A stretch of DNA of 64,000 nucleotides. It comes from Eledone cirrhosa (lineage: Eukaryota). Shown one piece after another: positions 9,225 through 45,793 of this stretch; within the stretch, counting starts at the first letter, position 1, and each line of letters opens with the position of its first letter. Made by a program: the position numbers and the translations under genes. The notes below the pieces were generated by a model. The model did not search any database. It was not told where the DNA came from and worked only from the letters and a program-made list of their open reading frames with translations. The stretch is taken from the NCBI GenBank assembly GCA_964016885.1, contig OZ024759.1, positions 18,600,001 to 18,664,000 on the forward strand. The letters run 5' to 3'.

Positions 9225-10098
9225 GGGAGCGGAAAGGAAGAGTCTCGGACGAAACTATGAAGTTGCTTAAGAAGAGGAAGAATATGAAGAGGACACCTGA
9301 AGATCACCTCGAATATTCCATTCTCAGCAGAGTGATACGTTAACAACTAAAGAGAGAAGCTCCTGAAGGCCGCAAAGGAAAATAAGAGCCTCAAGAAATG
9401 CGAGAGGGACATGACAATGTACAGATCGGAGGTGACGACCCTGAAAAACACAGCTTGAGTACCGGTCAGCGACAAGAGTGAGGTGGAAAAGATTTGCGAA
9501 GACTTCTACACCAAGCGCTTCAAGTCTGCCGGGAATGTGCAGCCGTTGCTGTCACTCCAACAGGAAGAAAATGTGCCACCCATCCTTGTCGGTGAGGTCG
9601 AAAGAGCCGTCGGCTTGATGAAAAGCGGAAAGGCAACAGAGAAAGACGGCATAACATCGGAGGTGTTGAAGTCAAGCGGAGAACAGCTCTGGAAAATCCT
9701 CGCCGAGCGATTCACACACTATCTGGGCGAGGGAAGAATTCCCTCGCACTGGAAAGAGTCGGATACCATCCTGCTATACAAGAAGGGCGATAGAGAAGAT
9801 CTGAAGAACTACCGACCTGTATGCTTGCTGTCTCACGTGTACAAGCTATTCAAGCAAGTTCAGATGGGCTGGATACGTCACCCGATTCACCGATATTCGG
9901 TGGACCCGCGCAGTTGCCGAGTGGTACCCGCGCGAGCGGAATCGATCACTCGGAAGGCCTCCACGAGGGTGGAGTTACGATTTTAAGAATACGATTGGGA
10001 ATACATGGATGAGGAAAACCCGATCCAGAGAGCAATGGACGGCGTGCTGTGACCAGCGGCGCCGAATGGAGGCCCGACAAACTGGTCGGTCAAGGTGA
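9225..10098 (+). mobile_element. Internally deleted RTE-clade LINE (RT pseudogene)
   Basis: GKATEKDGITSEVLK...WKESDTILLYKKGDREDLKNYRPVCLLSHVYKLF (start of RT) is joined at ~9855 to the C-terminal RWAGYVTRFTDIRWTRAVAEWYPRERNRSLGRPPRGW in another frame. Confidence 0.9.
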
Positions 10099-10113
10099 TA
10101 TATATGTGTATAT

Positions 10114-10209
<96 letters not shown>

Positions 10210-10220
10210 GTGTATATATA

Positions 10221-10291
<71 letters not shown>

Positions 10292-10337
10292 ATATATATA
10301 TATATATATATTATGTGCATATATATATATATATATA

Positions 10338-10460
<123 letters not shown>

Positions 10461-10595
10461 ATATATATATATATATATATGTGTGTATATATATATATAA
10501 ATATGTGCATATATATATATAAATATGTGCATATATATATATATATATATATGTGCATATATATATATATATATATGTGTATATATATATATATA

Positions 10596-10678
<83 letters not shown>

Positions 10679-10715
10679 ATATGTATATATATATGTATAT
10701 ATATATGTATATATA

Positions 10716-10814
<99 letters not shown>

Positions 10815-10821
10815 GTATATG

Positions 10822-10888
<67 letters not shown>

Positions 10889-10889
10889 G

Positions 10890-10921
<32 letters not shown>

Positions 10922-10976
10922 TGTGTGTATATATATATATATATGTGTGTATATATATATATATATGTGTATATAC

Positions 10977-11039
<63 letters not shown>

Positions 11040-11062
11040 CATATATATATGTATATATATAT

Positions 11063-11122
<60 letters not shown>

Positions 11123-11123
11123 C

Positions 11124-11172
<49 letters not shown>

Positions 11173-11187
11173 TATATATATATACAC

Positions 11188-11230
<43 letters not shown>

Positions 11231-11238
11231 CATATATA

Positions 11239-11295
<57 letters not shown>

Positions 11296-11315
11296 CATAC
11301 ATATATATATATATG

Positions 11316-11359
<44 letters not shown>

Positions 11360-11375
11360 CATATATATATATATG

Positions 11376-11433
<58 letters not shown>

Positions 11434-11449
11434 TATATGTGTATGTATA

Positions 11450-11609
11450 TAACATCAAAAGATGGTTAAAGGAGTTCCATGTATTTTATTATGCGCATTT
11501 CAAAAACAAATATTATCATGCGATGACATTTGCGTTTTCGTAAGATAAAATAGGGAGACATGATGTGAAGGTTAAAAAACACTTGTGAATAGTGCAGTTT
11601 TAAATCAAC

Positions 11610-11612
<3 letters not shown>
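11450..11612 (-). mobile_element. Family A single arm, HHR core decayed (CTTACGA)
   Basis: Homologous to 918-1081. Confidence 0.8.
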
Positions 11613-11649
<37 letters not shown>

Positions 11650-11661
11650 ATATGTATATAT

Positions 11662-11693
<32 letters not shown>

Positions 11694-11700
11694 GTATATG

Positions 11701-11732
<32 letters not shown>

Positions 11733-11794
11733 TATATGTATACATATATATATATGTATATATACATGTATATATATATATGTATATGTATATA

Positions 11795-11855
<61 letters not shown>

Positions 11856-11895
11856 GTATATATATATATAATGTATATATATATATGTATATATG

Positions 11896-11948
<53 letters not shown>

Positions 11949-12028
11949 ATATATATATATGCATATATATATATGTATATATGTATATATATATATATAT
12001 ATATATGTGTATATATATATATATATAT

Positions 12029-12441
<413 letters not shown>

Positions 12442-12442
12442 G

Positions 12443-12604
<162 letters not shown>

Positions 12605-12660
12605 TGTATATATATGTATATGTATATGTATATATATATATATATAATATATATATATGT

Positions 12661-12714
<54 letters not shown>

Positions 12715-12715
12715 G

Positions 12716-12776
<61 letters not shown>

Positions 12777-12833
12777 GTATATGTATATATATATATATAT
12801 GTATATATATGTATATATATATATATGTATATG

Positions 12834-12864
<31 letters not shown>

Positions 12865-12873
12865 GTATATGTG

Positions 12874-12904
<31 letters not shown>

Positions 12905-12913
12905 GTATATGTG

Positions 12914-13062
<149 letters not shown>

Positions 13063-13119
13063 GTATATATATGTTTATATATATATGTATATATATATAT
13101 ATGTATATGTATATATATG

Positions 13120-13294
<175 letters not shown>

Positions 13295-13301
13295 GTATAT
13301 A

Positions 13302-13362
<61 letters not shown>

Positions 13363-13371
13363 GTATATATG

Positions 13372-13516
<145 letters not shown>

Positions 13517-13684
13517 GTATGTATATGTATATAAATATATAATATGTATATATATATATATGTATATATATATGTATATGTATATATATATGTATATGTA
13601 TATATATATATGTATATATATATATATGTATACATATATATATATGTATATATACATGTATATATATATATGTATATGTATATA

Positions 13685-13755
<71 letters not shown>

Positions 13756-13792
13756 GTATATATATATATGTATATATATATATGTATATATG

Positions 13793-13845
<53 letters not shown>

Positions 13846-13859
13846 ATATATATATATGC

Positions 13860-13900
<41 letters not shown>

Positions 13901-13920
13901 TATATATATATATATATATA

Positions 13921-14280
<360 letters not shown>

Positions 14281-14288
14281 TATATGTT

Positions 14289-15075
<787 letters not shown>

Positions 15076-15076
15076 G

Positions 15077-15790
<714 letters not shown>

Positions 15791-15867
15791 GTATATATAT
15801 ATATATATATATACACATATATGTATATATATGTATATATATATATATATATACACATATATGTATA

Positions 15868-16175
<308 letters not shown>

Positions 16176-16187
16176 TGTATATATATG

Positions 16188-16230
<43 letters not shown>

Positions 16231-16231
16231 G

Positions 16232-16352
<121 letters not shown>

Positions 16353-16363
16353 GTATATATATG

Positions 16364-16412
<49 letters not shown>

Positions 16413-16483
16413 GTATATGTATATTTATATATATATATATATGTATATATATGTATATGTATATATATATATATGTATATGTG

Positions 16484-16514
<31 letters not shown>

Positions 16515-16523
16515 GTATATGTG

Positions 16524-16554
<31 letters not shown>

Positions 16555-16575
16555 GTATATATATATGTATATGTG

Positions 16576-16694
<119 letters not shown>

Positions 16695-16743
16695 GTATAT
16701 ATATGTATATATATATATGTATATATATATATGTATATGTATG

Positions 16744-16990
<247 letters not shown>

Positions 16991-16999
16991 GTATATATG

Positions 17000-17102
<103 letters not shown>

Positions 17103-17103
17103 G

Positions 17104-17184
<81 letters not shown>

Positions 17185-17293
17185 GTATATATATATGTAT
17201 GTATATGTATATAAATATATAATATGTATATATATATATATGTATATATATATGTATATGTATATAAATATATATGTATATATATATATATAT

Positions 17294-17389
<96 letters not shown>

Positions 17390-17472
17390 GTATATGTATA
17401 TGTATATAAATATATATGTATATATATATATATATAGGTATAAATATATATTTATATATTTATATATATATA

Positions 17473-17690
17473 TTGGTAAAAGGAAAAGAAAATGCTGACA
17501 AATTGTTCCCAGTGAAAAATAGTTTCATTAGGAATAAGCAAAAAATTAGTAATAAGTATTGGTTAGTATTCAGTTTTTACCGGTTGCGCATTTCTAACGC
17601 TTTTCCAAAATAATTTTGAGACAGAGCGCTCGTGATGTTTGCTCTAATCTGATCAGTTTTGGAAATTCTACCTGTATTATGTGAAAAAAA
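17473..17690 (-). mobile_element. Family E single arm
   Basis: Homologous to 22829-23240 and 60942-61447. Confidence 0.75.
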
Positions 17691-18480: not shown

Positions 18481-19204
18481 ATATATATATATATATATAT
18501 AAATAAGCACAACAAATACATACATATGTGTATATATAATGCATAGGGGTTAAAAATGCTGCAATTTTATATCCACGTAATTCCGTATGTACGTCATATA
18601 TTTCCTTCTATATATGGGAACTTACATATCTGCATCCCATTAATGCCCTGAAATGCTGAATCGTATGAACGAAATTGCATTTACGCAACACGACATAACA
18701 TGTATTTGAACTAATGTATAATGCTTTTGTTGAAATAGAAATGTCTTCTAGCCATTTTGTTTACGAAAAATAAAAAGTATGGGCTCTCGTTGAGTATATG
18801 AAGTGCAAAGATGTTGAGAAATGACATTGACTGCCTATTTGGTTTTAAAAAATAAACGCATTGCTTGTCAACTTACTCACGGCTATACTTATCGTACAGT
18901 TCAGAAAATACATAAATACAATATTCCCTGAAAATAATTAATATTTTATACATATATTTGCATATATATCGAGTACACGCGTTTAGCTCCCGCCTCTCTC
19001 TCACTCTATACATACATATATATGTGTATATATACATATATATGTGTATATATGCATATATATATACATACACACACACACATATATACATATATTCACA
19101 CACACACACACATATATATATATTCACACACACACACACATATATATATATTCACACATACATATATATATTCACATATATATATATATATTTATATATA
19201 TATT

Positions 19205-19237
<33 letters not shown>

Positions 19238-19238
19238 T

Positions 19239-19271
<33 letters not shown>

Positions 19272-19272
19272 T

Positions 19273-19307
<35 letters not shown>

Positions 19308-19340
19308 TCACATATATATATATATATTTATATATATATT

Positions 19341-19379
<39 letters not shown>

Positions 19380-19489
19380 GTAATAAAATGAAAACGAAAT
19401 TTCATTTCTCACTCTTAGTACGGCACTTACTTAAATGTAAGTATGTATGTATACGTACATACATATATGTATACAGACGTACAGTAGCA

Positions 19490-19525
<36 letters not shown>

Positions 19526-19676
19526 CAGGTACACATACATATATGTACGTATCAGTTTAGCGGACGCTTATTATAGCGCCCGCTTTGTTCGTTTGTAAAC
19601 AAACTGAACAGCCTGAATTTATGCCGTACGGTGTTAAGGCAACCACGTCACCTTTTTGTTCAACACTGACACAGGA

Positions 19677-19719
19677 ACGATGTACTAGTTTCAAGCTTGT
19701 TAGCTATCATCAGCATCGT
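19677..19719 (-). ncRNA. Hammerhead ribozyme, inverted retrozyme unit
   Basis: Reverse complement of 20275-20317. Confidence 0.85.
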
Positions 19720-20006
19720 ATACCCTTCTGCCAGATGGTTGAACGTTCGAAAGTATATACTTTCCTTATGAAAATTAACGGCTGAGCAGCCTAATTTGCA
19801 TATCGAGTGAGTCCGGCCAGGCGTACCGAGAACGACAAGTTGTAATAAAATGAAAACGAAATTTCATTTCTCACTCTTAGTACGGCACTTACTTAAATGT
19901 AAGTATGTATGTATACGTACATACATATATGTATACAGACGTACAGTAGCGGGCGCTATAATAAGCGTCCGCTAAACTGATACGTACATATATGTATGTG
20001 TACCTG

Positions 20007-20042
<36 letters not shown>

Positions 20043-20274
20043 TGCTACTGTACGTCTGTATACATATATGTATGTACGTATACATACATACTTACATTTA
20101 AGTAAGTGCCGTACTAAGAGTGAGAAATGAAATTTCGTTTTCATTTTATTACAACTTGTCGTTCTCGGTACGCCTGGCCGGACTCACTCGATATGCAAAT
20201 TAGGCTGCTCAGCCGTTAATTTTCATAAGGAAAGTATATACTTTCGAACGTTCAACCATCTGGCAGAAGGGTAT

Positions 20275-20317
20275 ACGATGCTGATGATAGCTAACAAGCT
20301 TGAAACTAGTACATCGT
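20275..20317 (+). ncRNA. Hammerhead ribozyme, retrozyme unit (also 20735-20777, 21195-21237, 21655-21697, 22115-22157)
   Basis: ACGATG CTGATGA t AGC-taacaa-GCT t GAAAC TA GTA CATCGT. 6-bp stem I, palindromic ACTAGT helix III, predicted cleavage after GUA (20311). Confidence 0.88.
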
Positions 20318-20468
20318 TCCTGTGTCAGTGTTGAACAAAAAGGTGACGTGGTTGCCTTAACACCGTACGGCATAAATTCAGGCTGTTCAGTTTGTTTACA
20401 AACGAACAAAGCGGGCGCTATAATAAGCGTCCGCTAAACTGATACGTACATATATGTATGTGTACCTG

Positions 20469-20499
<31 letters not shown>

Positions 20500-20928
20500 G
20501 CATGCTACTGTACGTCTGTATACATATATGTATGTACGTATACATACATACTTACATTTAAGTAAGTGCCGTACTAAGAGTGAGAAATGAAATTTCGTTT
20601 TCATTTTATTACAACTTGTCGTTCTCGGTACGCCTGGCCGGACTCACTCGATATGCAAATTAGGCTGCTCAGCCGTTAATTTTCATAAGGAAAGTATATA
20701 CTTTCGAACGTTCAACCATCTGGCAGAAGGGTATACGATGCTGATGATAGCTAACAAGCTTGAAACTAGTACATCGTTCCTGTGTCAGTGTTGAACAAAA
20801 AGGTGACGTGGTTGCCTTAACACCGTACGGCATAAATTCAGGCTGTTCAGTTTGTTTACAAACGAACAAAGCGGGCGCTATAATAAGCGTCCGCTAAACT
20901 GATACGTACATATATGTATGTGTACCTG

Positions 20929-20959
<31 letters not shown>

Positions 20960-21388
20960 GCATGCTACTGTACGTCTGTATACATATATGTATGTACGTA
21001 TACATACATACTTACATTTAAGTAAGTGCCGTACTAAGAGTGAGAAATGAAATTTCGTTTTCATTTTATTACAACTTGTCGTTCTCGGTACGCCTGGCCG
21101 GACTCACTCGATATGCAAATTAGGCTGCTCAGCCGTTAATTTTCATAAGGAAAGTATATACTTTCGAACGTTCAACCATCTGGCAGAAGGGTATACGATG
21201 CTGATGATAGCTAACAAGCTTGAAACTAGTACATCGTTCCTGTGTCAGTGTTGAACAAAAAGGTGACGTGGTTGCCTTAACACCGTACGGCATAAATTCA
21301 GGCTGTTCAGTTTGTTTACAAACGAACAAAGCGGGCGCTATAATAAGCGTCCGCTAAACTGATACGTACATATATGTATGTGTACCTG

Positions 21389-21419
<31 letters not shown>

Positions 21420-21848
21420 GCATGCTACTGTACGTCTGTATACATATATGTATGTACGTATACATACATACTTACATTTAAGTAAGTGCCGTACTAAGAG
21501 TGAGAAATGAAATTTCGTTTTCATTTTATTACAACTTGTCGTTCTCGGTACGCCTGGCCGGACTCACTCGATATGCAAATTAGGCTGCTCAGCCGTTAAT
21601 TTTCATAAGGAAAGTATATACTTTCGAACGTTCAACCATCTGGCAGAAGGGTATACGATGCTGATGATAGCTAACAAGCTTGAAACTAGTACATCGTTCC
21701 TGTGTCAGTGTTGAACAAAAAGGTGACGTGGTTGCCTTAACACCGTACGGCATAAATTCAGGCTGTTCAGTTTGTTTACAAACGAACAAAGCGGGCGCTA
21801 TAATAAGCGTCCGCTAAACTGATACGTACATATATGTATGTGTACCTG

Positions 21849-21879
<31 letters not shown>

Positions 21880-22308
21880 GCATGCTACTGTACGTCTGTA
21901 TACATATATGTATGTACGTATACATACATACTTACATTTAAGTAAGTGCCGTACTAAGAGTGAGAAATGAAATTTCGTTTTCATTTTATTACAACTTGTC
22001 GTTCTCGGTACGCCTGGCCGGACTCACTCGATATGCAAATTAGGCTGCTCAGCCGTTAATTTTCATAAGGAAAGTATATACTTTCGAACGTTCAACCATC
22101 TGGCAGAAGGGTATACGATGCTGATGATAGCTAACAAGCTTGAAACTAGTACATCGTTCCTGTGTCAGTGTTGAACAAAAAGGTGACGTGGTTGCCTTAA
22201 CACCGTACGGCATAAATTCAGGCTGTTCAGTTTGTTTACAAACGAACAAAGCGGGCGCTATAATAAGCGTCCGCTAAACTGATACGTACATATATGTATG
22301 TGTACCTG

Positions 22309-22339
<31 letters not shown>

Positions 22340-22420
22340 GCATGCTACTGTACGTCTGTATACATATATGTATGTACGTATACATACATACTATATATAT
22401 ATATTTATATATATTCACAC

Positions 22421-22452
<32 letters not shown>

Positions 22453-22580
22453 TTATATATATTCACACATATATATATACATATATTCACACATATATAT
22501 ATATTTATATATATATATATTCATACACATATATATATATATATATATATAAGTATATATATATATTTATATATATATAT

Positions 22581-22813
22581 ATTAAAATAACAGATTAAAG
22601 TTTAAGCAAAGAATCGCTGTTTTCACCCTTAACGGGACCATCTGAAACTTGAGTTTCAGAAGATCCCGTTAAGGGTGAAAGCAGCGATTCTTTGCTTAAA
22701 CTTTAATCTGTTATTTTAATAAATATTTGCTCTACGGTTCTTATATATTTTATATATATTTATCCTTATCGAGCCCTCTTTGGATTTTAGTCTTCAAATT
22801 TATTATTATTACT
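22581..22813 (+). mobile_element. Fold-back HHR element, family D (palindrome 22581-22720 plus tail)
   Basis: HHR variant 22652-22702: AGTTT CAGAAGA t CCC-gttaa-GGG t GAA AGCA..TGCT T AAACT. Homologs at 24157-24500 (-) and tail-only 1387-1434. Confidence 0.75.
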
Positions 22814-22828
22814 ATATATATATATAAT

Positions 22829-23240
22829 TAAAAAGGAAAAGAAAATTCTGACAAACTTTTCCCAGTGAAAAATAGTTTAATTAGGAATAAGTATAAATTA
22901 GTAATAAGTATTGGCTAGTATTCAGTTTTAGTTTTAAGTTCTTATCGGTTGCGCATTTCTAATGCTTTTCAAAAATATTTTTGAGATAGAGCGCTCGTGA
23001 TGTTTGCTCTAATCAGATTAGAGCAAACATCACGAGCGCTCTATCTGTAAAATATTTTTGAAAAGCATTAGAAATGCGCAACCGGTAAGAACTTAAAACT
23101 AAAACTGAATACTAACCAATACTTATTACTAATTTATACTTATTCCTAATTGAACTATTTTTCACTGGGAAAAGTTTGTCAGAATTTTCTTTTCCTTTTT
23201 ACTAATATATCACAACTCGTGTGTCACACCTCTACTTTTT
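22829..23240 (+). mobile_element. Family E fold-back element (palindrome ~22829-23201 plus tail)
   Basis: ~185-bp arms centred on ctctaatc-a-gattagag (23015). Tail atatatcacaactcgtgtgtcacacctcta. Confidence 0.85.
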
Positions 23241-24156: not shown

Positions 24157-24500
24157 TAATAATAATAATAAATTTGAAGACTAAAATCCAAAGAGGACTC
24201 GGTAGGGATAAATATATATCAAATATATAAGAACCGTAGAGCTATGATTTATTAAAATAACAGATTAAAGTTTAAGCAAAGACTCGCTGCTTTCACAATT
24301 AACGGGATCTTCTGAAACTAAAAACATCAATCCGTGAACACATTTAGTGTTCACTTTTCTCCTATTTTACACCTAATTCTGTTTAATTGACTGTATATCT
24401 GGGCGATTACGCTGTCGAAATATTCGATAAATATTCCGTCGCAGCCGGCGCGAAGGGCTGGTTTCGGTTATTTGTTGGAGATTTCTTCATAGAAGCCTTA
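24157..24500 (-). mobile_element. Family D longer copy with HHR variant at 24269-24319
   Basis: Reverse complement of 22652-22813, extended 5'. Confidence 0.7.
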
Positions 24501-26471: not shown

Positions 26472-27509
26472 TAAATAAATGAATAAATAAATAAATAAAA
26501 ACAGCGCATGAAGAAAGAAACTAATACAATGAAAATCCTGTGAGGAAGCTAGTCATTATAGATATCAATAAAACCTTCGCATATAAGGGTTAACACGTTC
26601 ATAATCAATACCGTGAATCGAATTTATAGAATAAATATATAAACAAATAAACAAATGTATACAAAAATTAAACAAATATAAGACTAATCGATGAAAACTA
26701 TACTACATCAGTGAATACAAGTCAAAGGAAATTGAAGGCGAGTATAATGAAAATCAACATCATGAAAATTTCTTAGAAAAAGCACAAGAAATTTGGTAAA
26801 AAGGGAATGGACCTCCTTCGATTTCGGCGATGAGTTTCACTTATTCTATCTACGTAATATCCTGTTCGAGAAATTGACGTTAAGATTTCTGAGTAATGTG
26901 CCCCTTATGTATTTCTCAGGAAGATTCAGCGTGACAGTTTGGAATATGGCTGGCCATTTGAATTACATTTAACATCGGCGGGATTTGGAATAAATAAAGT
27001 AAACAAAGAGCTGTAACAAAATGTTAGGAAGCATAGCATAGTGTCTGGTGCTCTACTGATTCTGCCAATTAATCACCCTCCGTAGAGGACAATACAATAT
27101 AAATGGACTGTGGAGATTTTCATATAGATATGTAAACAGAGAGCAACCTCCATCCCCTAAAAAAAAAACAGGTAACGAATAACAACAAATTTGTAACAGA
27201 CTTCCCAAATAATGGTGAGTAAAATCCAAAGATAATTTAGTATTCCCAAAGGTCCGAGACGACACCGATCACCAAGAACATAATAGAAAAGAGCCACTCC
27301 GCTTTCTTCTCTCATGCCAGCAGCAAATAGTAATTTTCAATCTAAGAACATAGCCAATAATTTGTGGGGAGTGGAAATTTGATTATATCAACCCCAGTAC
27401 ATGGCTGGTATTTTATTTTATCGAACTAGGAAGGATGAAAGGGACAGTTGGTTTCGGTAGGATTTGAACTAAGAACGTATATAGTCGGGATATTAACGAT
27501 AATAGGGGA

Positions 27510-28520
27510 GTAAAAGAATTAGCAGGACTAGACAAAAGAAAAACAAGAAAAGTAATGACCGCATTTAAAAAAACACCACCCAAAATCAGATGCTGAAAGA
27601 TTATACCTACCACGAACATAGGGAGGTAGAGGCTTTATGCAACTAGAAAATTAATACAAAGAAACAAAAACTGTTTTCTATGTTCAAGGAATCTGATAAA
27701 TTTAAAACAGAATCTGAATTGACGGATAATTATGAGGAAAATGAAAACACAGATGAAACAAACTCTGAAAAGGATAAAATCCAAATTGAAAATAGATCTT
27801 CAGAATGCTAAGCTAAAACGATGACAAGAAAAACCAATAACTGTAACAAAAACCAATTACTGTAAAAATGAATAAGGTGGAAGAGGACAAGCAAAATTCC
27901 GAAAACTTGTTAAGTCGCACTTAACGAAAACCCAAAACTGAAGAAGTTCTAATTGCTTCACAAGATCGAAGACTCCGCACCAGAAACCACCAAAAATATA
28001 TAATCAAACAGAATACAGCAAGTGACTGCAGAATATGTGGTGATGGAGAAGTAACAATTAATCACATTATTTCTAGCTCCCCCCAAAACATATCCACAAA
28101 CATGATAGAGTTGGTATTTACATACACTGAATGTTTTGCCAAATCTACAAAATACCAACAGAAAAAAGGTGATAAAAACACTCACCAGAAAAGGTGTCAG
28201 AGAATGACGAAGCAACCGTAGCCTGGGGTATTCCAATAAAGACAGGGAAATCAAAGACAACCAACAGGATATAGTCAAAGACCACAAAAAAGTTTTGTAA
28301 TTGACTTTTGTGTCCCTTCAGACAATAATATATATATCAAAGAAATGGAGAAATAATCCAAGTATAAAAATCACCCGAATGTGGAGGATGAAAACAGAAA
28401 TAAGCCCTAAAATGATAAATGCCCTGGAAATAATAAAAACACACAGAGACCGTTACATGATGAAGCTCTTAAACATAGTGATATTAGGCAGTACACGGAT
28501 TCAGAAAAGTACTCCCAATA
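27510..28520 (+). pseudogene. Decayed R4/Dong-like non-LTR retrotransposon C-terminus (restriction-like endonuclease type)
   Basis: Frameshifted motifs in the expected order: RLYLPRT*GGRGFMQLE (27598), KTEEVLIASQDR, CRICGDGEVTINHIISSS (28027), NQQDIV, IDFCVPSDN, ITRMWRMKTEISPKMINALE, VILGSTRI. Confidence 0.75.
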
Positions 28521-28632
28521 CAATAAAAATACCACCACCAAAAACAACACAGCACGTACACAGAACTGTGTTCGATGAAGCAGAAACAACACGCAATAAA
28601 AATCAGACCAACATTATGACTAATATTATCAT

Positions 28633-41461: not shown

Positions 41462-44400
41462 AAAGAATACTGCCAGACTAAATTCAGTCTGCAATAACAT
41501 TCATGAAATGTATCTTTGTCTGTTAATTATTACTGAATATGGGGGACGGTAACAGGCGAAGAATACTGCCAGACTAAATTCAGTCTGCAATAACATTCAT
41601 GAAATATATCTTTGTGTGTTAATTATCACTGAATATGGGGGACGGTAACAGGCGAAGAATACTGCCAGACTATATTCAGTCTGCAATAACATTCATGAAA
41701 TATATCTTTGTGTGTTAATTATCAGTGAATATGCCTGACGGTAACAGGCGAAGAATACTGCCAGACTAAATTCAGTCTGCAATAACATTCATGAAATATA
41801 TCTTTGTCTGTTAATTATCACTGAATATGGGGGACGGTAACAGGCGAAGAATACTGCCAGACTATATTCAGTCTGCAATAACATTCATGAAATGTATCTT
41901 TGTCTGTTAATTATTACTGAATATGCGGGACGGTAACAGGCGAAGAATACTGCCAGACTAAATTCAGTCTGCAATAACATTCATGAAATATATCTTTGTG
42001 TGTTAATTATCACTGAATATGGGGGACGGTAACAGGCGAAGAATACTGCCAGACTATATTCAGTCTGCAATAACATTCATGAAATATATCTTTGTGTGTT
42101 AATTATCAGTGAATATGCCTGACGGTAACAGGCGAAGAATACTGCCAGACTAAATTCAGTCTGCAATAACATTCATGAAATATATCTTTGTCTGTTAATT
42201 ATCACTGAATATGGGGGACGGTAACAGGCGAAGAATACTGCCAGACTATATTCAGTCTGCAATAACATTCATGAAATATATCTTTGTGTGTTAATTATCA
42301 GTGAATATGGGGGACGGTAACAGGCGAAGAAAACTGCCAGACTAAATTCAGTCTGCAATAACATTCATGAAATATATCTTTGTCTGTTAATTATCACTGA
42401 ATATGGGGGACGGTAACAGGCGAAGAATACTGCCAGACTAAATTCAGTCTGCAATAACATTCATGAAATATATCTTTGTCTGTTAATTATCACTGAATAT
42501 GGGGGACGGTAACAGGCGAAGAATACTGCCAGACTAAATTCAGTCTGCAATAACATTCATGAAATATATCTTTGTCTGTTAATTATCACTGAATATGGGG
42601 GACGGTAACAGGCGAAGAAAACTGCCAGACTAAATTCAGTCTGCAATAACATTCATGAAATATATCTTTGTGTGTTAATTATCACTGAATATGGGGGACG
42701 GTAACAGGCGAAGAAAACTGCCAGACTAAATTCAGTCTGCAATAACATTCATGAAATATATCTTTGTCTGTTAATTATCACTGAATATGGGGGACGGTAA
42801 CAGGCGAAGAATACTGCCAGACTAAATTCAGTCTGCAATAACATTCATTAAATATATCTTTGTCTGTTAATTATCACTGAATATGGGGGACGGTAACAGG
42901 CGAAGAATACTGCCAGACTAAATTCAGTCTGCAATAACATTCATTAAATATATCTTTGTCTGTTAATTATCACTGAATATGGGGGACGGTAACAGGCGAA
43001 GAATACTGCCAGACTAAATTCAGTCTGCAATAACATTCATTAAATATATCTTTGTCTGTTAATTATCACTGAATATGGGGGACGGTAACAGGCGAAGAAT
43101 ACTGCCAGACTAAATTCAGTCTGCAATAACATTCATTAAATATATCTTTGTCTGTTAATTATCACTGAATATGGGGGACGGTAACAGGCGAAGAATACTG
43201 CCAGACTAAATTCAGTCTGCAATAACATTCATGAAATATATCTTTGTGTGTTAATTATCACTGAATATGCGGGACGGTAACAGGCGAAGAATACTGCCAG
43301 ACTATATTCAGTCTGCAATAACATTCATGAAATATATCTTTGTGTGTTAATTATCACTGAATATGCCCGACGGTAACAGGCGAAGAATACTGCCAGACTA
43401 AATTCAGTCTGCAATAACATTCATGAAATGTATCTTTGTCTGTTAATTATCAGTGAATATGGGGGACGGTAACAGGCGAAGAATACTGCCAGACTAAATT
43501 CAGTCTGCAATAACATTCATGAAATGTATCTTTGTGTGTTAATTATCACTGAATATGGGGGACGGTAACAGGCGAAGAATACTGCCAGACTAAATTCAGT
43601 CTGCAATAACATTCATGAAATGTATCTTTGTGTGTTAATTATCACTGAATATGCGGGACGGTAACAGGCGAAGAAAACTGCCAGACTAAATTCAGTCTGC
43701 AATAACATTCATTAAATATATCTTTGTGTGTTAATTATCACTGCATATGCCTGACGGTAACAGGCGAAGAATACTGCCAGACTAAATTCAGTCTGCAATA
43801 ACATTCATGAAATATATCTTTGTCTGTTAATTATCACTGAATATGCGGGACGGTAACAAGCGAAGAATACTGCCAGACTAAATTCAGTCTGCAATAACAT
43901 TCATGAAATGTATCTTTGTCTGTTAATTATCACTGAATATGGGGGACGGTAACAGGCGAAGAATACTGCCAGACTAAATTCAGTCTGCAATAACATTCAT
44001 GAAATGTATCTTTGTCTGTTAATTATCACTGAATATGGGGGACGGTAACAGGCGAAGAATACTGCCAGACTAAATTCAGTCTGCAATAACATTCATGAAA
44101 TATATCTTTGTGTGTTAATTATCACTGAATATGCGGGACGGTAACAGGCGAAGAATACTGCCAGACTAAATTCAGTCTGCAATAACATTCATGAAATATA
44201 TCTTTGTGTGTTAATTATCACTGAATATGCGGGACGGTAACAGGCGAAGAATACTGCCAGACTATATTCAGTCTGCAATAACATTCATGAAATATATCTT
44301 TGTGTGTTAATTATCACTGAATATGCGGGACGGTAACAGGCGAAGAATACTGCCAGACTATATTCAGTCTGCAATAACATTCATGAAATATATCTTTGTG

Positions 44401-45793
44401 TGTTAATTATCAGTGAATATGGGGGACGGTAACAGGCGAAGAATACTGCCAGACTATATTCAGTCTGCAATAACATTCATGAAATATATCTTTGTGTGTT
44501 AATTATCACTGAATATGCCCGACGGTAACAGGCGAAGAATACTGCCAGACTAAATTCAGTCTGCAATAACATTCATGAAATGTATCTTTGTGTGTTAATT
44601 ATCACTGAATATGGGGGACGGTAACAGGCGAAGAATACTGCCAGACTAAATTCAGTCTGCAATAACATTCATGAAATATATCTTTGTGTCTTAATTATCA
44701 CTGAATATGCGGGACGGTAACAGGCGAAGAATACTGCCAGACTAAATTCAGTCTACAATAACATTCATGAAATATATCTTTGTCTGTTAATTATCACTGA
44801 ATATGCCCGACGGTAACAGGCGAAGAAAACTGCCAGACTAAATTCAGTCTGCAATAACATTCATGAAATATATCTTTGTGTGTTAATTATCACTGAATAT
44901 GCGGGACGGTAACAAGCGAAGAATACTGCCAGACTAAATTCAGTCTGCAATAACATTCATGAAATATCTCTTTGTCTGTTAATTATCACTGAATATGGGG
45001 GACGGTAACAGGCGAAGAATACTGCCAGACTAAATTCAGTCTGCAATAACATTCATGAAATGTATCTTTGTCTGTTAATTATCACTGAATATGGGGGACG
45101 GTAACAGGCGAAGAATACTGCCAGACTAAATTCAGTCTGCAATAACATTCATGAAATATATCTTTGTCTGTTAATTATCACTGAATATGGGGGACGGTAA
45201 CAGGCGAAGAATACTGCCAGACTAAATTCAGTCTGCAATAACATTCATGAAATATATCTTTGTGTGTTAATTATCACTGCATATGCGGGACGGTAACAGG
45301 CGAAGAATACTGCCAGACTAAATTCAGTCTGCAATAACATTCATGAAATATATCTTTGTGTGTTAATTATCACTGAATATGGGGGACGGTAACAGGCGAA
45401 GAATACTGCCAGACTAAACTCAGTCTGCAATAACATTCATTAAATATATCTTTGTCTGTTAATTATCACTGAATATGCCCGACGGTAACAGGCGAAGAAT
45501 ACTGCCAGACTAAACTCAGTCTGCAATAACATTCATGAAATATATCTTTGTCTGTTAATTATCACTGAATATGCCCGACGGTAACAGGCGAAGAATACTG
45601 CCAGACTAAATTCAGTCTACAATAACATTCATGAAATATATCTTTCTGTGTCAATTATCACTGAATATGCGGGACGGTAACAGGCGAAGAATACTGCCAG
45701 ACTAAATTCAGTCTGCAATAACATTCATGAAATATATCTTTCTGTGTCAATTATCACTGAATATGCCTGACGGTAATAGGCGAAGAAAACTGC
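41462..45793. repeat. 96-bp tandem satellite, ~45 copies
   Basis: gaatactgccagactaaattcagtctgc recurs at 41561, 41657, 41753 and so on. Only a few polymorphic sites; no spacers. Confidence 0.97.

Follow-up and report, generated by a model that had tools for sequence, protein, structure and literature searches.

The array of 460-nt units at 19376..22392 of the window, the whole stretch of 64,000 nt analysed here, is best read as a recent retrozyme insertion made in trans by a Penelope-like reverse transcriptase (RT)-endonuclease, probably on a circular monomer RNA, a reading to which we assign a probability of roughly 0.63. New here, relative to the literature considered, is the Penelope footprint on retrozyme insertions; the retrozyme class and the proposal of a circular template copied by a Penelope-like RT, put forward by Cervera and de la Pena 2020 (PMC7229834), were already known.

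The insertion consists of two arms. The tandem arm (19948..22392, + strand) holds 5.3 copies of a unit with a 460-nt period at 99% (TRF; the copy count is that of the assembly sequence), and runs from unit position 99 at its 5' end to unit position 240/241 at its 3' end, position 1 being the first base after the predicted cut. The inverted arm (19376..19950, − strand) spans 575 nt, or 1.25 units, with its 5' end at unit position 193 and its 3' end, in RNA sense, at unit position 305. The 3' end of the tandem arm will be called site B, the 'untailed' end, and that of the inverted arm site A, the 'tailed' end. The arms overlap by a 3-nt microhomology, AGC, at a head-to-head junction (19948..19950). 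A preliminary description of this DNA had recognised about 5.3 units, a single TA difference, an inverted arm of about 1.2 units and a TA-rich insertion site, all of which hold; the extent it gave (19378..22391) shifts to 19376/19377 on the left and, by TRF, to 22392 on the right. The meaning of the inverted arm, namely the two-site footprint of Penelope insertion, was missed.

No difference was found between the four complete cut-to-cut units of the array, and the sole difference within the insertion is one TA step in the TA tract, which is (AT)14 in two places, the first + unit and the inverted arm, and (AT)13 in the other five. This length-variable (TA)n tract belongs to a predicted TA/TG-rich long hairpin (20442..20545, + strand), placed from the fold and the arm maps, and unit length differs between loci with the length of the tract. 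Open reading frames inside the array do not exceed 62 aa, and its GC content is approximately 37%. The left half of the target (19007..19376) is a compound (TA)n / TTCAC(AC)n microsatellite, which is continued in unchanged orientation in the right half (22392..22582). At this locus and at the mapped family loci no target-site duplication was readable, the targets being (TA)n tracts, and no LTR-type flanks were present.

Each complete unit carries a predicted type I hammerhead. The first of the five on the + strand lies at 20275..20317, with the cut predicted after 20311, and the others start at 20735, 21195, 21655 and 22115, each displaced by a multiple of 460; the one in the inverted arm lies at 19677..19719 on the − strand, with the cut predicted between 19683 and 19682. 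CTGATGA occurs at 20281, 20741, 21201, 21661, 22121 (+) and 19713 (−), and the GTA triplets end at 20311, 20771, 21231, 21691 and 22151, which confirms in all five + units the cleavage triplets reported earlier. Stem I has 6 bp, stem II has 4 bp on a U-U pair with an AACA loop, and stem III, in the preferred reading, is one A-U pair closed by a palindromic CUAG loop rather than the two pairs with a 2-nt loop first suggested. An extended stem I of about 23 bp with bulges is predicted at 20250..20336 (+ strand) and would tether both ends of a cut monomer.

That a hammerhead is present is backed by a type I descriptor, which matched the unit and none of 5000 dinucleotide shuffles, and by covariation. 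The covariation alignment comprised 20 of the 40 variant clusters from the fetched loci, with junction-cut clusters and near-duplicates left out. Across these 20 variants 95.6% of the stem cells were paired, with 43 double changes, compared to 34-46% in slid controls, and the core varied only at position 7, at the cleavage base and in a single damaged copy. Since the aligned variants are mutually related, the shuffle count of this covariation test gives no probability. Judged from the pairing and the double changes in the stems, the RNA fold is under selection. The Rfam check that had been proposed gave a divided answer, with no match to the array at gathering score and a weak match to Hammerhead_HH9 (score 19.3 bits, E 0.049, the cut-off being 52); miRNA matches in the low-threshold search were rejected, as they correspond to the TA hairpin.

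Folding put the cost of the core-open conformation at 1.4 kcal/mol and the duplex of the stem III palindrome at −6.8 kcal/mol. The U-U base of stem II, which is G-C in the sister family described below, and the palindromic stem III tetraloop are shared with two weak axolotl motifs, each feature being described among them in PMC7229834, where these motifs cleave far better as dimers; for Xenopus retrozyme dimers, 10.64898/2026.07.22.740005 reports in vitro cleavage of one out of nine and none for the other eight. Because of its weak stem II base and weak stem III, the predicted ribozyme looks weak and dimer-dependent, possibly with low activity. The earlier picture of an 'intact' hammerhead releasing exact monomers from every unit is not supported in that form, in view of the U-U base, the one-pair stem III and the variable unit length.

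The unit is a member of an abundant family. A 36-mer from the hammerhead matched the 3.0-Gb genome exactly at 10,391 places, its reversed control at none, and the loci, thousands in number, are dispersed with distinct flanks and junctions. A lack of other genomic copies had been named in the preliminary description as evidence against its view of a young non-LTR retrozyme; these more than ten thousand matches contradict that objection, and the view stands. The variant of this locus accounts for 40 matches at 20 places on 11 contigs, and is a small young branch of the family, whose youngest variant group has arms of up to 8.4 units. A relaxed pattern returned 10,922 further matches, mostly from a sister family with units of 466-470 nt, other stem sequences and a matching predicted branched fold, bringing the hammerhead matches of the two counted families to over 21,000.

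The sister family also contains much longer arrays, such as one of 31 units at G000:C1:5738326-5752444 and arrays of more than 30 kb with a 6-unit higher-order repeat at C1:95.65-95.68 Mb (L199-L200, L224-L231); as a side reading, the long arrays are retrozyme insertions turning into satellite DNA. The shared variants and the higher-order repeat of the longest of them indicate growth at the DNA level, and very long arrays are therefore no evidence for rolling copying. A 2817-nt spacing at C1:95.67 Mb was considered as a coding element and rejected, since it is the 6-unit higher-order repeat. An eight-base motif at 20193-20200 (unit 342-349), which we presume may be labelled an 'octamer', is kept in both families though one of its bases is unpaired in the hairpin. 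A snRNA-type promoter was rejected, as the motif is absent in four of four host U2 upstream regions and the unit does not align there.

The positions at which the arms end carry the main argument. Arms were mapped in the window, in 17 stretches picked by similarity, in 40 stretches from the first 100 listed hammerheads of contig C1 (six of these 40 chosen for odd spacing) and in 15 later stretches. The first 58 stretches yielded 112 arm pieces, of which 94 had their 3' end at site A (unit 296-307, mode 306) or site B (unit 241-253, modes 246 and 249), compared to an expectation of 5.4%; the two sites are about 60 nt apart, and the 18 other ends include TA-tract breaks, nested insertions and older subfamilies. 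Sites A and B were first noticed in the initial 18 stretches and then tested on later ones, in which they accounted for 65 of 78 ends, and subsequently for 21 of 23 ends in loci fetched afterwards. The pairing of the sites was equally regular, with 41 of 47 head-to-head insertions combining A with B, none combining A with A or B with B, and six unresolved. Homologous sites about 70 nt apart were found in the sister family, where 16 of 18 two-arm insertions, by manual reading, were of the A+B type.

While the outer 3' ends are fixed, the inner 5' ends are scattered over the unit, and the inner junctions are variable, with microhomology. The array does start and stop mid-unit, as had been observed, though its outer ends are positions fixed across the family, and the 'different start points' taken as a rolling-circle signature hold for the inner junction alone. 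The 'tail' of one unit (20548..20617, + strand) extends from a small hairpin, whose loop contains site B (unit 241-250), to site A (303-306); in the predicted folds of both families, site B occupies the loop of this small hairpin, and an A/T-rich hairpin lies immediately 5' of site A. No 5' end out of 93 was mapped to unit positions 1-30, where about six were expected, a gap possibly due to the way the self-complementary stem I affects mapping.

An inverted arm, a tail at one end, two fixed 3' ends, a (TA)n target and microhomology at the 5' junction together make up a Penelope-type footprint. Penelope-like elements have been described with an inverted truncated arm and a tail at one end only (PMC8557442, PMC3846280), and the anole Penelope-like protein acts in vitro on both strands of AT-rich DNA, cutting and extending each, with RT starting at two internal sites that delimit the tail (PMC11167929). 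Coding Penelope-like copies of the present genome likewise sit in (TA)n with a tailed and an untailed end, as in all three two-arm copies of a family with a 62-nt tail. The rule of one tailed and one untailed end also accounts for the long-noted inverted structure of Penelope elements, each of the two strands having been primed once. The suggestion of a Penelope-like RT acting in trans fits the counts of ends and paired sites well, and we consider it very probable, at the level of the insertion footprint, that this non-LTR retrozyme is mobilised by a Penelope-like protein.

Candidate partners are plentiful. The genome is rich in GIY-YIG elements (the best 150 of 10,597 candidates were scored), and RT and GIY-YIG occurred together in 11 of 14 scanned ORFs, with RT mostly below the Pfam cut-off. 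One abundant family has the CxCX5C linker described for the Hydra clade. A very abundant young Hydra-type Penelope family (L153-L168), with ORFs of up to 809 aa, carries a hammerhead of its own with a long stem II, and its two ends are separated by about 95 nt. In about 80 stretches around GIY-YIG and Hydra-type matches, the best of about 10,600 and 68,400 candidates respectively, no coding family shared sequence with the unit. Tail alignments likewise pointed to no partner, the best non-sister alignment being to Hydra (equalled in 6 of 500 shuffles, unadjusted) and that of the 62-nt-tail family being equalled in 97 of 500, nor was one found with relaxed hammerhead patterns. At L064:3479-4244, a Hydra-type endonuclease fragment with a tailed inverted arm is fused in sense to unit position 227, the product of either one template-switch insertion or a later insertion with deletion. 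This fusion and another at L059 were rejected as partner evidence because one-armed copies join many kinds of repeat.

With regard to the template, only 1 of 93 arm 5' ends lay within 10 nt of the cut (4.0 expected), and the post-cut 19-mer without its upstream G was found at just 231 places genome-wide, most of those listed looking like point changes. The rarity of 5' ends at the cut means that the RT read across the cut site, its template being either a circle or uncleaved RNA. The cut site is crossed by 74 of 94 arms, a proportion inflated by the choice of loci by hammerhead or similarity. Over 299 columns, units differed by 1.3 within the same arm, 2.1 between opposite arms and 13.6 between loci, and the arms of a pair, compared in 29 cases, differed at no more than two subfamily-type sites. 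Coding Penelope elements also form overlapping inverted arms, from linear RNA, and two arms alone therefore need no circle.

The most serious alternative is that the same two-site Penelope-type insertion used an uncleaved linear multimer as template, the hammerhead being weak or acting at another stage. Uncleaved RNA was the dominant in vitro substrate of the anole element, for which cleavage is not needed for insertion (PMC11167929); moreover, the geometry of the hammerhead is weak, read-through at the cut site is equally expected, and the identical units of young source arrays would give homogeneous daughters. The variants within insertions bear on this choice, since an edited multimer is expected to yield A>G changes private to single units, and a single edited monomer copied repeatedly to yield A>G changes fixed across the insertion. 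Fixed variants were defined, in RNA sense and for 74 insertions of the family of this locus, as those in all copies of an insertion and absent from its nearest neighbours. Among them A>G outnumbered T>C by 22 to 6, compared to 17 against 28 among unit-private variants (Fisher p 0.0008), so that the excess is insertion-wide and the private excess expected of a multimer is absent. The 13 newest insertions alone gave 5 fixed A>G against 1 T>C. The 22 events occupy 17 distinct sites, several of which recur, and many map to the 3' strand of the TA/TG-rich long hairpin.

The skew fits repeated copying of a single edited monomer, though the fixed variants may have been inherited from source loci outside the sample. 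RNA editing is raised in PMC7229834 as a possible source of circle heterogeneity. The sister family had no A>G excess among fixed variants (17 against 15 in 25 insertions, with five long or overlapping stretches left out of the count). Its locus L209 carries three clustered A>G changes in all 16 unit copies of both arms; at L040, two A>G changes are present in just one of two copies. Two further points count against a linear multimer: copying through the parent would sometimes repeat its inversion junction, and none recurs among the listed two-arm loci, and arrays should shrink with each generation without a length-regenerating step, while arms reach the lengths of several units given above. 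We regard this alternative as unlikely. End-to-end jumping between linear monomers left no trace in the family of this locus in the form of subfamily mosaics. The sister family has one possible case, the B arm at L211:1789-2835, where the variant appears to change no more than about 90 nt from the hammerhead cut, possibly by a template switch between two RNAs. Read-through at the cut, homogeneous units and fixed A>G variants lend indirect support to the earlier idea of an RT running round circular RNA, the uncleaved multimer being its chief competitor, and the template was probably a circular or nicked-circular monomer.

A further alternative, discussed in 10.64898/2026.07.22.740005, derives the unit from a coding Penelope-like element, as its detached pseudo-LTR, and has short insertions growing later into arrays by unequal crossing-over. 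The same work linked 24 of 57 Xenopus retrozyme families to known elements; of the 22 elements matched, 21 were Penelope-like, with the similarity at their termini, and the duplication seen in the long sister arrays did occur at the DNA level. For the present family, however, an ORF bounded by units was found in none of 73 stretches (57 of them searched by tblastn), and no relationship to the unit is seen in the terminal repeats of the coding families sampled. Variants in short arrays were private in 245 cases and partial in 12, unlike the outcome of stepwise duplication, and both arms are often multi-unit with fixed ends. We therefore consider this origin decidedly improbable. The idea of an ordinary satellite, or of an assembly expansion of one copy, with a hammerhead by chance can draw on the identical units of this locus and the missing Rfam match at gathering score, but is negligible and at the family level refuted by the descriptor result, the covarying stems, the thousands of loci scattered through the genome with differing flanks and junctions, unit-private differences in other arrays and 12 listed arm-to-arm joints at different places in contigs of run X1 (which is possibly not independent of the assembly).

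For the circular-template insertion that we prefer, the following course would account for the observations. The array would be transcribed, and monomers would be excised by neighbouring hammerheads paired with each other via the palindromic stem III loop. The two ends of a monomer, tethered by the long stem I, would be ligated by a host ligase, some molecules undergoing A-to-I editing. A Penelope-like protein, probably a dimer, would nick both (TA)n strands and prime two cDNAs, one at each of the sites A and B. Each RT would then pass the ligated cut site, completing between 0.1 and over 10 turns, and the two cDNA ends would be joined through microhomology. In its most specific form, with an RT dimer on one edited, ribozyme-made circle priming both strands of the (TA)n break 60 nt apart, the model is tentative and falls a little short of even odds. 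If true, rolling-circle retrotransposition is recorded in the genome, in which a viroid-like RNA with its fold under selection would be cycling through the chromosome.

The family has the features of non-LTR retrozymes, with tandem units, one type I hammerhead in each, covarying stems, no coding capacity, low GC and dispersed multi-copy occurrence. A plant LTR retrozyme, which would have a type III hammerhead within its LTRs and a 4-bp duplication of the target, was rejected on the type I topology and the tandem units, and an autonomous EN+ Penelope-like element on the absence of an RT + GIY-YIG ORF from the array, from the 57 stretches covered by tblastn and from the arm maps, whether within the units or bounded by them. 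Metazoan non-LTR retrozymes (newt satellite 2, axolotl, mussel, coral; PMC7229834) are alike in their short dispersed hammerhead tandems, low GC, lack of ORFs, highly self-paired monomer and thousands of copies. The unit is slightly longer here, at 460 against the 150-450 bp given there, and within the range of 51-972 bp in 10.64898/2026.07.22.740005; moreover, expression and circles were demonstrated for the PMC7229834 retrozymes, whereas for this family both are predictions from genome sequence. The words 'inverted' and 'microsatellite' do not occur in the main text of PMC7229834, and the passages considered from it do not describe two-arm (TA)n insertions. Li, Clavereau and Pollet 2026 (10.64898/2026.07.22.740005) likewise treat retrozymes as non-autonomous dependants of Penelope-like elements and argue for their descent from terminal repeats. 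Their evidence, in the parts considered, is co-occurrence and terminal-repeat similarity, mostly in vertebrates and without an analysis of insertion ends, while the link drawn here is the insertion footprint, with no terminal-repeat homologue found.

Among EN+ Penelope-like elements, Poseidon of Anolis (PMC11167929), Neptune, Hydra and Naiad (PMC8557442) and the Adineta Penelopes (PMC3846280) were compared. The likenesses are an inverted 5'-truncated arm, a tail that may be present at one end, RT starting at two internal sites, insertion into AT-rich or (TA)n DNA, joins through microhomology and a hammerhead in the repeat; the differences are the missing RT/GIY-YIG ORF and the fact that both arms here are concatemers of one small unit. 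The tail of about 60 nt also exceeds the 30-40 nt typical in these sources, and tails in coding families of this genome measure 62 and about 95 nt. The Chlamys MRC1 type (PMC8557442) similarly forms non-coding, multicopy head-to-tail insertions driven by a Penelope-like partner, though it generally has 3' sequence in common with the autonomous family and belongs to a clade without canonical hammerheads. No publication on retrozyme insertion ends or on retrozymes of this host group was found; subscription papers and supplements could hold such data.

For the return of animal retrozymes to the genome, previously proposed to involve a circle and a Penelope-like RT, the present data provide a footprint-level link. 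They place two RT start sites to the base, and the insertion-wide edits offer a sequence test for a circular template. The two hammerhead families form a sizeable, still-active part of the genome, and the questions of partner and circle can be put to a direct test with the in vitro assay already published for a Penelope-like protein.

The surroundings of the array contain further repeats. Beside it, at 22585-22814 and 24157-24340, lies a small palindromic repeat in (TA)n that recurs in L064 and L077 and has arms with unequal ends, one of them short and the other reaching about 90 nt further; from this structure it looks like a Penelope-type terminal-repeat remnant. A near-perfect 195-nt inverted repeat with unequal outer ends occupies 22820-23210, and similar sequence lies upstream of a GIY-YIG ORF in L126. 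Upstream, a 7.4-kb (TA)n-rich tract with a GC content of 3-15% extends over 10098-17473. A decayed fragment at 27500-28600, read by eye, is presumably the 3' part of an RTE-type non-LTR element, and a 96-bp unit without an Rfam match is repeated in 45 copies at 96% identity over 41463-45793.
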